Shown here: piece by piece, positions 928-63,073 of the stretch
How positions within the stretch are numbered: position 1 is the first letter of the stretch
Layout: each line of letters starts with the position of its first letter
DNA from: Escherichia coli
Lineage (GTDB): Bacteria; Pseudomonadota; Gammaproteobacteria; Enterobacterales; Enterobacteriaceae
Direction: 5' to 3' (one strand)
Assembly (NCBI RefSeq): GCF_044647545.1
Contig: NZ_CP172818.1
Length of the DNA: 64,000 nt
The notes under the pieces: model-generated
Databases searched by the model: none
Seen by the model: only the letters and a program-made list of their open reading frames with translations
Told to the model about the DNA's origin: nothing
Translations under genes and position numbers: made by a program

Positions 928-2247
928 TTAACCGTGTTTATTTTTCAGTTCAAAGCGTGGAGATACCAGACCATACAGTGTCCAACCAAGGAAGGTCACG
1001 ATGGAACCGTACAGCATGGCTTCTTCCCCGGATGAGTACAGCGCATAGAAACTGTACATCGCACCAACAAAGGCAACAAAGTTTGCTACTTTCGCTTTTG
1101 ATGGTGGCACATTGGCGACCTGCTGAATAATGACTAACGCCGCCATCGACAGAATATACGGGATGATATTGGTCACAACGGCCAGGTTAACCAGCACGTT
1201 GAACTGACTGTTCAGCGACGGGCTAATGGTCATCAGTGATAATCCGCTCTGGATGATGACAATGGTCAGCATTCCCTGTACTGGTGCATCGACTTTGCTC
1301 ACACGGGAGAAAATTTTCGGGAAGTACCCTTCATCGGCAGAAGATTTAAACACCTGGGCAATGGTGAACTGCCAGCCAAGCAGCGAACCGCAGCAGGACA
1401 TCACCATCAGCGCCATAATGACTTTACCCACTCCCGGCGTGAACATCTGTGCGAAGGCCAGGCCAAATGGTGCCGTTGAATTTGCCAGCTCCATATTTGG
1501 CACAATCCCGGCAATCACGTTGGTGGAGACGATATAAATCACCGCCGCACCTAACGTACCGCCAAGAACTGCAATCGGCACGTTACGTTCCGGGTTTTCA
1601 ACTACTTCGGCGTTGGCACAGGCAGACTCCAGACCGAGGAAAGCCCACAATGTCATGGCGATGGAGGAACCTACAGCGCTAAAGAACGGTACATGATGAG
1701 GGTTCCATGAGTTAGCGTACAGCGTCGGGCTAAACCAGAACCAGCCGATAATGCACAGACCGACGACCGGAATAATGACCCCCCACACAGTAATGCTACT
1801 GATTTGCCCGGTAATGCGCGCACCACCAAAGTTAGCCACGGTACAAATCCACAGCACTCCGATGGTCGCAAGACCAATCTGCACTGGCGACAAACTCGCG
1901 CCGAGCAGTTCGGTGCCGTAACCAACCGCCGAAATAGCAATCGCGACGTTAGCAATCAGCAGCGAGACACCGTAGGTGTAGTTCGCCATAAAGTTCCCTG
2001 ATTTACCGAAAGCATACTCCGCATAACCGCCCATACCGCCTGATTTACGGCTGAACATGCCGCATTTTGCGAATGCCCATGCCAGCGCCATTGAGCCTAC
2101 GGCTGTCACCAGCCAGGAGATAATTGAGATTGTCCCAACTTCGGCAAGCTTTGTCGGCAGCATGATGATACCGGAGCCCATCATGTTGACCATCGTCAGT
2201 ATGGTTAACTGAACGACGCCCATCTTGTTCGATTTAGCCTGACTCAT
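928..2247 (-). CDS. potE: Putrescine-ornithine antiporter
   Basis: ORF-track protein matches PotE from MSQAKSNKMGVVQLT onward; 439 aa when started at the internal Met; 4-bp overlap with speF. Confidence 0.95.
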   Translation of the reverse strand: MSQAKSNKMGVVQLTILTMVNMMGSGIIMLPTKLAEVGTISIISWLVTAVGSMALAWAFAKCGMFSRKSGGMGGYAEYAFGKSGNFMANYTYGVSLLIANVAIAISAVGYGTELLGASLSPVQIGLATIGVLWICTVANFGGARITGQISSITVWGVIIPVVGLCIIGWFWFSPTLYANSWNPHHVPFFSAVGSSIAMTLWAFLGLESACANAEVVENPERNVPIAVLGGTLGAAVIYIVSTNVIAGIVPNMELANSTAPFGLAFAQMFTPGVGKVIMALMVMSCCGSLLGWQFTIAQVFKSSADEGYFPKIFSRVSKVDAPVQGMLTIVIIQSGLSLMTISPSLNSQFNVLVNLAVVTNIIPYILSMAALVIIQQVANVPPSKAKVANFVAFVGAMYSFYALYSSGEEAMLYGSIVTFLGWTLYGLVSPRFELKNKHG

Positions 2248-61622: not shown

Positions 61623-62414
61623 ATGAGCAGTAACTTCAGACATCAACTATTGAGTCTGTCGTTACTGGTTGGTATAGCGGCCCCCTGGGCCGCTTTTGCT
61701 CAGGCACCAATCAGTAGTGTCGGCTCAGGCTCGGTCGAAGACCGCGTCACTCAACTTGAGCGTATTTCTAATGCTCACAGCCAGCTTTTAACCCAACTCC
61801 AGCAACAACTCTCTGATAATCAATCCGATATTGATTCCCTGCGTGGTCAGATTCAGGAAAATCAGTATCAACTGAATCAGGTCGTGGAGCGGCAAAAGCA
61901 GATCCTGTTGCAGATCGACAGCCTCAGCAGCGGTGGTGCAGCGGCGCAATCAACCAGCGGTGATCAAAGCGGTGCGGCGGCATCAACGACGCCGACAGCT
62001 GATGCTGGTACTGCGAATGCTGGCGCGCCGGTGAAAAGCGGTGATGCAAACACGGATTACAATGCAGCTATTGCGCTGGTGCAGGATAAATCCCGCCAGG
62101 ATGACGCAATGGTGGCATTTCAGAATTTCATCAAAAATTACCCTGATTCAACTTACCTGCCAAACGCCAATTATTGGCTGGGTCAGTTAAACTACAACAA
62201 GGGTAAAAAAGATGATGCGGCGTATTATTTTGCTTCGGTAGTGAAAAACTATCCGAAGTCACCGAAGGCTGCAGATGCGATGTTTAAAGTCGGCGTCATC
62301 ATGCAGGACAAAGGTGACACCGCAAAAGCGAAAGCCGTATACCAGCAGGTTATCAGTAAATACCCTGGTACTGATGGCGCTAAACAGGCGCAAAAACGTC
62401 TGAACGCGATGTAA
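61623..62414 (+). CDS. cpoB: Cell division coordinator CpoB (YbgF), TPR protein
   Basis: 263-aa ORF with signal peptide, coiled coil and TPR repeats; last gene of the tol-pal cluster. Confidence 0.9.
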   Translation: MSSNFRHQLLSLSLLVGIAAPWAAFAQAPISSVGSGSVEDRVTQLERISNAHSQLLTQLQQQLSDNQSDIDSLRGQIQENQYQLNQVVERQKQILLQIDSLSSGGAAAQSTSGDQSGAAASTTPTADAGTANAGAPVKSGDANTDYNAAIALVQDKSRQDDAMVAFQNFIKNYPDSTYLPNANYWLGQLNYNKGKKDDAAYYFASVVKNYPKSPKAADAMFKVGVIMQDKGDTAKAKAVYQQVISKYPGTDGAKQAQKRLNAM

Positions 62415-62578
62415 TGCATAACACACGACCAGAAGTCGCATTATTTCTGGTCGTGTCGTGCGAATCATAAGCAGTTGAGTGATCTACATCGAAATTTTTG
62501 TTGCGCTCAAGTCTGAAATCAGTAATATATGCCGCCGTTGCCACGGGATATCAAACAAACCGAAAGCAACGAAAAAGT

Positions 62579-62654
62579 GGGTCGTTAGCTCAGTTGGTAG
62601 AGCAGTTGACTTTTAATCAATTGGTCGCAGGTTCGAATCCTGCACGACCCACCA
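62579..62654 (+). tRNA. lysT: tRNA-Lys (UUU)
   Basis: 76-nt gggtcgttagctcagttggtagagcagttgacttttaatcaattggtcgcaggttcgaatcctgcacgacccacca; anticodon loop cuUUUaa; encoded CCA. Confidence 0.95.
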
Positions 62655-62789
62655 ATCGCTAAGGTGGAAGCGGTAGTAAAACGTGAAGGATAACGTTGCG
62701 TCAGCAACGGCCCGAAGGGCGAGACGAAGTCGAGTCATCCTGCACGACCCACCACTAACATAGTTAGTTGTAGTATCCAGCGTAGTATC

Positions 62790-62865
62790 GGGTGATTAGC
62801 TCAGCTGGGAGAGCACCTCCCTTACAAGGAGGGGGTCGGCGGTTCGATCCCGTCATCACCCACCA
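62790..62865 (+). tRNA. valT: tRNA-Val (UAC)
   Basis: 76-nt gggtgattagctcagctgggagagcacctcccttacaaggagggggtcggcggttcgatcccgtcatcacccacca. Confidence 0.95.
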
Positions 62866-62867
62866 CC

Positions 62868-62943
62868 GGGTCGTTAGCTCAGTTGGTAGAGCAGTTGACT
62901 TTTAATCAATTGGTCGCAGGTTCGAATCCTGCACGACCCACCA
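62868..62943 (+). tRNA. lysW: tRNA-Lys (UUU)
   Basis: Identical 76-nt tRNA-Lys sequence. Confidence 0.95.
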
Positions 62944-62994
62944 CTAATTACGGTGGGTTCGGTGGAAGTAGTTTGTAGTATCCAGCGCAGTATC

Positions 62995-63070
62995 GGGTGA
63001 TTAGCTCAGCTGGGAGAGCACCTCCCTTACAAGGAGGGGGTCGGCGGTTCGATCCCGTCATCACCCACCA
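62995..63070 (+). tRNA. valZ: tRNA-Val (UAC)
   Basis: Identical 76-nt tRNA-Val sequence. Confidence 0.95.
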
Positions 63071-63073
63071 CTC

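Follow-up and report, generated by a model that had tools for sequence, protein, structure and literature searches.

The long spacer between the first two tRNA genes of the Escherichia coli lysT operon holds one copy of the tRNA-linked repeat (TLR), the element that Rfam describes as RtT RNA. In the window, by which we mean the whole 64,000-nucleotide stretch of DNA that was analysed, this copy occupies positions 62655-62754, and we consider it likely to be a co-transcribed, structured spacer RNA in which a copied tRNA end pairs back within the unit and sets a tRNA-like 3' end. It is no new kind of element: it belongs to a family, not recognised in the initial annotation, that was described decades ago and is already covered by Rfam and by genome annotations. 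The first TLRs were reported from tyrT in 1978 (Egan and Landy, as cited in PMC8144298), and the K-12 catalogue comprises 22 copies at 10 loci with one to five copies each (Rudd, 1999, as cited in PMC8144298). Their hallmark is that 18-19 bp at the 3' end exactly repeat the 3' end of whichever tRNA or rRNA lies upstream (PMC8144298), and they are described as having 'no known function' (Stenum et al., 2021, PMC8144298). In other strains, PGAP annotates an 'RtT sRNA' next to lysQ. The family is conserved, structurally constrained and abundant in stable-RNA operons, and the question of its function is an old one.

Seven tRNA genes were placed by ARAGORN at the end of the 64-kb window, between cpoB and nadA, and the operon has the following parts.

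62579-62654, + strand: lysT, tRNA-Lys(UUU) (ARAGORN; Rfam tRNA model, 79.2 bits)
62637-62654, + strand: last 18 nt of lysT, the upstream copy of a direct repeat (repeat family D3)
62790-62865, + strand: valT, tRNA-Val(UAC), the next operon gene after lysT (ARAGORN)
62868-62943: tRNA-Lys, lysW (ARAGORN)
62995-63070: tRNA-Val (ARAGORN)
63074-63148: tRNA-Lys, lysY, the third tRNA-Lys (ARAGORN)
63197-63272: tRNA-Lys (ARAGORN)
63306-63381: tRNA-Lys (ARAGORN)
63386-63412, + strand: terminator hairpin of the lysT operon (inverted repeat I6)

With these ARAGORN boundaries the spacers measure, in order, 135, 2, 51, 3, 48 and 33 nt. The lysT-valT spacer (62655-62789) therefore has the 135 nt given for it in the initial annotation, judged by the ends of tRNA-Lys and tRNA-Val, while the range of 2-50 nt given there for the other spacers was nearly right, the real maximum being 51 and thus one more. 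Because the terminator hairpin comes only after the last tRNA-Lys gene, the TLR unit lies inside the transcription unit, in agreement with the earlier placement of the insert within a polycistronic precursor. For K-12, a processing study describes the lysT operon as one polycistronic transcript whose precursors are detected by spacer probes and which is processed by RNase P, helped by RNase E (PMC4176162). A scan of the lysT-valT spacer revealed no promoter or terminator-like signal on the + strand, the sole match being the P4 hairpin (see below) read on the - strand. An intrinsic terminator or attenuator was ruled out, as the spacer contains no + strand GC-rich hairpin with a U-run.

The 3' part of the spacer carries the sequence ATCCTGCACGACCCACCA at 62737-62754, identical in 18 of 18 positions to the 3' end of tRNA-Lys (62637-62654). 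Elsewhere in the 64-kb window this sequence is found only at the 3' ends of five tRNA-Lys genes, and the chance expectation was a mean of 0 over 100 shuffles. The copy of the tRNA-Lys 3' end that had been pointed out at this place is thus exact, and the possibility, also raised in the initial annotation, that such an 18-nt match might be common by chance did not materialize. Identity between lysT and the remnant ends at exactly 18 nt; the remnant together with the CTAA (4 nt) that follows it is identical to the lysW 3' end and its flank (repeat family D3). Single-piece empty lysT-valT alleles exist, as was seen in junction searches and checked in the sequences of UPEC-774U and FRIK1989. When the filled allele was aligned with these two, the difference amounted to exactly 100 nt, that is, 82 nt plus one copy of the 18-nt repeat; the indel can be placed anywhere within the 18-nt direct repeat, and apart from it the flanks have nearly the same sequence. 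This exact indel defines the limits of the unit as 62655-62754. An insert, proposed earlier at roughly 85 bp, is therefore real, but its size relative to empty alleles is 100 nt. The parts of the unit and of the remaining spacer are as follows.

62655-62754, + strand: TLR/RtT-like unit, 100 nt, short form without P2 and P3 (RF00391; 100-nt indel; fold)
62655-62681, + strand: variable 5' linker of the unit, 27 nt (fold; differs among the four K-12 units)
62682-62691, + strand: 5' strand of P1, CGTGAAGGAT, which apart from one A.G mismatch is complementary to the beginning of the remnant (folds; family covariation)
62694-62709, + strand: P4 hairpin, CGTTGC (62694-62699)-GTCA-GCAACG (62704-62709) (folds), the short hairpin that had been described in front of the remnant
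62710-62720, + strand: P5 hairpin, GCCC-GAA-GGGC (folds)
62720-62734, + strand: P6, C-GA-[GAC-GAA-GTC]-GA-G, a small hairpin of variable sequence between G.A / A.G positions (covariation in both alignments)
62737-62754, + strand: remnant, comprising the T-loop end, T-stem 3' strand, acceptor 3' strand and CCA (exact repeat match; fold)
62737-62746, + strand: 3' strand of P1, within the remnant (fold)
62755-62789, + strand: spacer proper, 35 nt, up to valT, which is the whole spacer where the unit is absent (filled/empty alignment)

A permissive Rfam scan of 62400-63450 gave a match to RF00391 (RtT RNA) at 62586-62754 with 60.6 bits and an E-value of 3.9e-11, the gathering score of this model being 45. 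In the alignment, the 5' half of the model falls on the tRNA-Lys body across a 44-nt insertion, and we therefore regard the unit in the window as a truncated RtT relative that lacks P2 and P3. From the RtT architecture it retains P1, P4, P5, P6 and the tRNA end, whereas P2 and P3 are absent. The unit begins at 62655, the base after the CCA of lysT and inside the lysT operon, the 18 nt at its 3' end are those of the upstream tRNA-Lys, and it aligns with the K-12 units of the lysT operon, tyrT, the arg operon and rrnB. The similarity of its core to the tyrT, arg and 5S units extends beyond the 26-nt pattern that was used for searching. A relaxed tRNA search of the spacer, as had been proposed in the initial annotation, returned no tRNA-like match within 62655-62789, neither with ARAGORN nor with the Rfam tRNA model even at E ≤ 10. 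A tRNA gene or pseudogene was ruled out, since the spacer shows neither a cloverleaf nor a tRNA-model match. The term 'decayed tRNA copy' describes the unit only in part: an outer shell derived from a tRNA is plausible, but the core between lysT and the remnant is not tRNA, is common to other linked units and contains covarying helices. In annotations, the long lysT-valT spacer should accordingly carry a TLR/RtT label and not that of a tRNA pseudogene or an unexplained insert.

In K-12 MG1655, the spacers of the lysT operon measure 135, 2, 149, 3, 146 and 132 nt, and each of the four long ones holds a unit that starts right after the CCA of a tRNA-Lys and ends in the same 18-nt remnant. All four units score above the RtT threshold (54-60 bits), and the four copies at the K-12 tyrT locus, one of which overlaps the annotated rttR, reach 133-137 bits with the same model. 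A fifth, full-length lysine TLR follows the lysQ terminator in a K-12-like strain, where the 'RtT sRNA' annotated by PGAP ends exactly at the CCA of the remnant, and the five lysine units at the K-12 locus thus agree with the published 'one to five' per locus. The K-12 units 1 and 4, as well as 2 and 3, are pairwise alike, flanks included, as block duplication inside the operon would produce. Across the four K-12 spacer units the P4 loops read GTCA, ATGA, GCCA and GTTA, and the 5' linkers differ. In the TLR after lysQ of the K-12-like strain (locus extract 2560-2600), GAGCCGC-TC-GCGGCGAC replaces the CGTTGC..GCAACG of P4; P4 is therefore not invariant, and the core search pattern missed part of the family.

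Compared with K-12, the window keeps the unit at only the first of the five operon positions. Units are missing after lysW (62944), lysY (63149) and lysZ (63273), where the sequence is otherwise that of K-12 with the units precisely removed, and the terminator-plus-TLR unit is missing, just as precisely, after lysQ (63382-63420). Each missing unit is bounded by an 18-nt repeat or by the duplicated terminator. A comparison of spacer lengths across strains, another of the checks proposed earlier, showed that the lysT-valT spacer has 135 nt here and in MG1655 and 35 nt in UPEC-774U and FRIK1989; UPEC-774U has no spacer unit anywhere in the lysT operon. Occupancy was then counted by the 5' junction sequence of each unit in 5426 complete E. 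coli genomes. The junction was present in 3549 of 5426 genomes for the lysT-valT unit, in 2310/5426 for lysW-valZ, in 4057/5426 for lysY-lysZ and in 1799/5426 for lysZ-lysQ. About a third of the E. coli genomes thus lack the lysT-valT junction, which indicates that any function of this unit is non-essential or redundant. Single lysine TLR copies are dispensable and are often lost or gained. The unit is bounded by two direct repeats of 18 nt, one being the real tRNA end and the other the remnant, and its copies are therefore lost or gained precisely. The simplest cause would be recombination or slippage, both between these two repeats and among the repeated tRNA-Lys genes.

Folding of the window unit gave a minimum energy of -35.5 kcal/mol (z -2.54) with P1, P4, P5 and P6 formed, and predicted an additional pairing of GGTGG (62663-62667) with CCACC (62749-62753). 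The GGTGG of the 5' linker is kept in Citrobacter orthologues. When a precursor of lysT, spacer and valT was folded, the same unit domain appeared and tRNA-Lys folded separately, although the ensemble was diffuse. P1 of the window unit contains one A.G mismatch and is followed by a tail of 8 nt instead of ACCA. In full-length units, P1 has a 5' strand complementary to three parts of the remnant, namely ATCC, the 3' strand of the T-stem and 2-7 nt from the 3' strand of the acceptor; P2 is a hairpin with a 3' strand that reproduces the T-stem 5' strand of the cognate tRNA together with TTCGA; P3 and P6 are hairpins flanked by almost invariant G.A / A.G positions; and P4 and P5 are two small hairpins. 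The E. coli lysine spacer units are of the short form, in which a variable linker replaces P2 and P3 and in which P1, P4, P5, P6 and the remnant are kept.

For an alignment of 46 distinct full-length units, P1-P6 were written by hand and pairs were counted; RNAalifold on the full-length set recovered only a partial P1, P4, P5 and one alternative helix. Standard pairs were present in 90.9% of cells, as compared to 34-45% when partners were slid by 1-3 columns, and compensatory changes occurred in 17 of 38 pairs (147 cells). The covariation score was 0.236 versus 0.05-0.08 in the slid controls, and none of 500 shuffles reached the observed values. P4 and P5 had been fixed by the search pattern, so that their invariance carries no weight, and the signal came mostly from P1, P3 and P6. 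Within P1, 6 of 10 pairs showed compensatory changes and the helix follows the tRNA type; in Amphritea, for example, the P1 strand CGTATAGGAT matches the altered T-stem of the strain's own tRNA-Lys. Similarly, an alignment of 48 short-form units behind Lys or Arg genes showed covariation in P1 and P6. These data show that the TLR family is under selection for an RNA-type fold and indicate purifying selection on its structure. At the closing position of P4 (alignment columns 87/106), A..G was found in 20 units and G..A in 24, and the G.A / A.G flanks of P3 and P6 lie in columns 71-72/81-82 and 117-118/133-134. The alternating and invariant G/A positions at P3, P4 and P6 suggest non-canonical purine pairs.

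The core pattern CGTTGC-N4-6-GCAACG-R-CCCG-W-AGGG, scanned in one genome per species, was found in at least 120 stretches. The matches listed come from many Enterobacterales, from Gilliamella and Zophobihabitans, and from Marinobacterium, Amphritea, Marinobacter and Alloalcanivorax. In the latter four genera, well outside the Enterobacterales, the TLR core stands behind tRNA genes. Among the matches listed, ARAGORN found the core downstream of tRNA-Lys(UUU), tRNA-Tyr(GUA), tRNA-Arg(ACG or CCG), tRNA-Pro(UGG or CGG) and tRNA-Glu(UUC), and where a tRNA lay closely upstream, about three quarters of the listed cores were followed after 5-27 nt by an exact copy, mostly of 18 nt, of the cognate tRNA 3' end. 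Lys-to-Val spacer units with the same layout were found among the listed matches from Citrobacter, Enterobacter, Phytobacter, Pluralibacter and Pseudocitrobacter, and Klebsiella carries the lysT-valT unit at 91% identity. Since the same spacer unit is present in Citrobacter, Enterobacter, Klebsiella and other genera, the lysT-valT unit is old and not a recent accident. The core also occurs behind 5S rRNA: downstream of rrfB in K-12 (rrnB locus extract 255-325), rrB shows CGTTGC-GAA-GCAACG, GCCC-GGA-GGG, a further hairpin and then 18 nt of the 5S 3' end, and it scores below the RtT gathering score of Rfam. With the same core behind 5S rRNA, the core is not tied to tRNA T-loops, and the idea that it is specifically a T-loop insertion was weakened. 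In Yersinia nurmii, a unit at tRNA-Arg (locus extract 2034-2160, minus strand) reproduces tRNA-Arg almost exactly from the anticodon stem through the TTCGA of the T-loop, continues directly with the core and then has the remnant, as if the core had come to lie in the T-loop of a copied tRNA gene. An outer shell can therefore derive from a tRNA gene copy.

A functionless scar, that is, a tRNA-Lys duplicate that lost its 5' two thirds and is kept because it is harmless, would explain why the remnant is the exact 3' end of tRNA-Lys and why the unit is dispensable in many strains, and the Yersinia nurmii unit demonstrates that a shell can have such an origin. We nevertheless consider it unlikely, because the 82 nt before the remnant are not tRNA-like (no tRNA match at E ≤ 10), the core is common to units behind five tRNA types and 5S rRNA among the matches listed, and the helices covary. 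Moreover, a Lys-to-Val unit retained in the five genera named above, and at 91% in Klebsiella, is too conserved for neutral decay.

Under the preferred reading, as one TLR copy, the unit would be co-transcribed within the tRNA operon, a step shown for K-12 in the literature and extended here to the window strain, and would fold independently into a compact domain. In this domain, P1, formed by the 5' strand and the copied T-stem/acceptor 3' strand, would enclose P4, P5 and P6, and with P1 built from the copied tRNA end, the RNA would present a 3' end like that of tRNA-Lys. The 18 copied nt may, by analogy, let the normal tRNA 3'-end machinery, with an endonuclease cut downstream followed by exonuclease trimming, set the 3' end of the unit at CCA. 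The product would be a structured spacer RNA of about 100 nt that is released or marked, or else a protected intermediate. This analogy draws on the annotated RtT RNA of tyrT and on the 5S-linked RrB. The K-12 rttR (tyrT locus extract 937-767, minus strand) ends exactly at the CCA of the remnant, and the 3' end of RrB maps 3 nt past the 5S-end copy, which was proposed as an RNase E determinant (PMC8144298).

Expression of relatives has been reported. In A. pleuropneumoniae, Northern blots revealed RtT RNAs encoded next to tRNA-Lys and tRNA-Asn genes (PMC4986893). In Klebsiella, four RtT RNAs that are 166-170 nt long and have closely spaced locus tags were annotated on the basis of Rfam, and RNA-seq showed them to be differentially expressed (PMC4147364); we infer them to be Lys-linked units. 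For the K-12 lysT operon itself, the text of a Northern study with probes in the lysT-valT spacer describes spacer-containing species only in RNase P mutants, mentions 'surprisingly few' intermediates in the wild type and reports no discrete RNA released from this spacer (PMC4176162). It may therefore be that no stable RNA of 100 nt accumulates.

The initial annotation had also suggested a processing decoy. As a decoy or regulator, the remnant would compete with the true tRNA-Lys 3' strand or with processing enzymes and so slow or tune the maturation of lysT and valT. The remnant indeed has the sequence of the strand to which the 5' acceptor and T-stem strands of tRNA-Lys pair, it lies 82 nt downstream in the same transcript, and in cmscan the tRNA body and the unit can be aligned together to a single RtT-like fold. 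However, the minimum-energy folds pair the remnant with its own P1 strand and leave the tRNA separate, an objection of little weight given the diffuse ensemble, and the covariation of P1 with the remnant across tRNA types suggests that selection keeps the intramolecular pairing. Strains without any spacer unit exist (UPEC-774U), and the published processing pathway (PMC4176162) needs only RNase P and RNase E. Since the conserved partner of the remnant lies inside the unit and many strains lack the unit, a decoy or regulator of processing is not favoured and appears quite improbable.

A more far-reaching proposal, which we put forward as a long shot, is that TLRs are released as mimics of the 3' end of the cognate stable RNA (acceptor/T-arm side plus CCA if tRNA-linked) and could titrate, or serve as reporters for, a factor recognizing the 3' ends of uncharged tRNAs, or that the core is a non-autonomous module that inserts into stable-RNA genes at a distance of about 18 nt from their 3' end. 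Factors that such mimics could titrate include 3' exonucleases, the CCA-adding enzyme, RelA-type sensors and tRNA-targeting toxins. If true, either version would provide the first function or origin for a repeat family unexplained since 1978. Experiments on TLRs may be guided by three points, namely the combinatorial presence and absence of units in 5426 genomes, the outer helices that covary with the cognate tRNA and the core common to the 5S-linked units.

A site-specific insertion element or its footprint, targeting the last ~18 nt of stable-RNA genes and restoring the gene end as integrative elements do, was also considered and is very unlikely. The layout resembles attL/attR, with an intact gene, an insert and a displaced 3' end; presence and absence are precise; and the same core stands behind many tRNA genes and 5S, each time with the cognate end. 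Yet the unit has only 100 nt, no integrase or mobility gene is nearby, the neighbours of the operon being cpoB and nadA, and the matches in phage and plasmid collections are essentially mislabelled chromosomal records, with all plasmid matches being non-mobilizable and many of them megabase-sized. The pairwise likeness of K-12 units 1/4 and 2/3 with their flanks is as expected for block duplication inside the operon, and clean loss between the 18-nt repeats explains the polymorphism without transposition. One match in the phage collection is a 7-kb unannotated record named 'Salmonella phage S.Kent 1-2-1'. Like attL/attR duplications in tRNA genes, the unit shows a direct repeat of the tRNA 3' end flanking an insert, but the insert has 82 nt here, is gene-free, conserved and RNA-structured, and lies inside an operon without an integrase. 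The integrase or element genes expected for the att scar of an integrative element are absent, with only 82 nt between the repeats and with cpoB and nadA as neighbours.

A small arginine-rich peptide, like tpr of the tyrT repeats, is extremely improbable: a 20-codon ORF with a TTG start (62696-62758) contains RQQRPEGR, matching RRQRPEGR of the 'protamine-like' tpr, and a 26-codon ORF with a GTG start (62683-62763) is also Arg-rich, but both are very short, begin at non-ATG codons within RNA helices and lack a visible ribosome-binding site. The residues in common with tpr are a consequence of the conserved nucleotide core, and variation in the family follows base-pairing and not codons. The two Arg-rich ORFs over the unit are probably a by-product of conserved nucleotides.

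Taken as a TLR, the window unit shares with the E. coli TLRs its site after a tRNA gene, the 18-nt cognate end and the conserved core, and there is no essential difference, the window strain keeping one of the five K-12 lysT-operon positions. With the RtT RNA rttR it has P1, P4, P5, P6 and the cognate tRNA 3' end in common, and it differs in being a short form with a 27-nt variable linker for P2/P3 and a score of 60.6 versus 133-137 bits. Whereas rttR lies after the last tRNA gene, the window unit lies between two tRNA genes and is known from its sequence. rttR is a 171-nt RNA released from the tyrT-tyrV transcript (Bosl and Kersten, 1991, as cited in PMC8144298), and a phenotype of rtT in the stringent response (amino-acid starvation) was later retracted (PMC8144298). 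The 5S-linked TLRs RrA, RrB and RrF have the same core and an 18-nt copy of the 3' end of the upstream stable RNA as the window unit, but are linked to 5S rRNA and not to a tRNA, and their GGA loops are CsrA motifs. RrA, RrB and RrF bind Hfq and CsrA in vitro, whereas 19 tRNA-linked TLRs scored <0.01 for CsrA binding (PMC8144298). Like the window unit, 3'ETS-leuZ and the tRNA-spacer sponge RNAs are by-products of polycistronic tRNA precursors that could act in trans (Lalaouna et al., 2015, as cited in PMC8144298); 3'ETS-leuZ and the window unit have no sequence or structure in common.

Two further observations concern the surroundings of the unit. The lysY gene has 75 nt instead of 76, due to a deletion near 63132, and its T-loop reads TTCGAA-CC and not TTCGAATCC, with an Rfam score of 74.4 versus 79.2 bits. 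In the closest genome, the E. coli strain FDAARGOS_497, which is 99.9% identical to the window over the tRNA operon region, the counterpart has 76 nt, and no identical single-piece 76-mer was found for the lysY region among the top-ranked matches in complete E. coli genomes. Unless it is an error of sequencing, the deletion is a private mutation and would impair the T-loop. An inverted repeat with perfect 12-bp arms, ACACGACCAGAA / TTCTGGTCGTGT, at 62423-62456, located just past the cpoB stop codon and ahead of the lysT promoter region, is probably the cpoB terminator.
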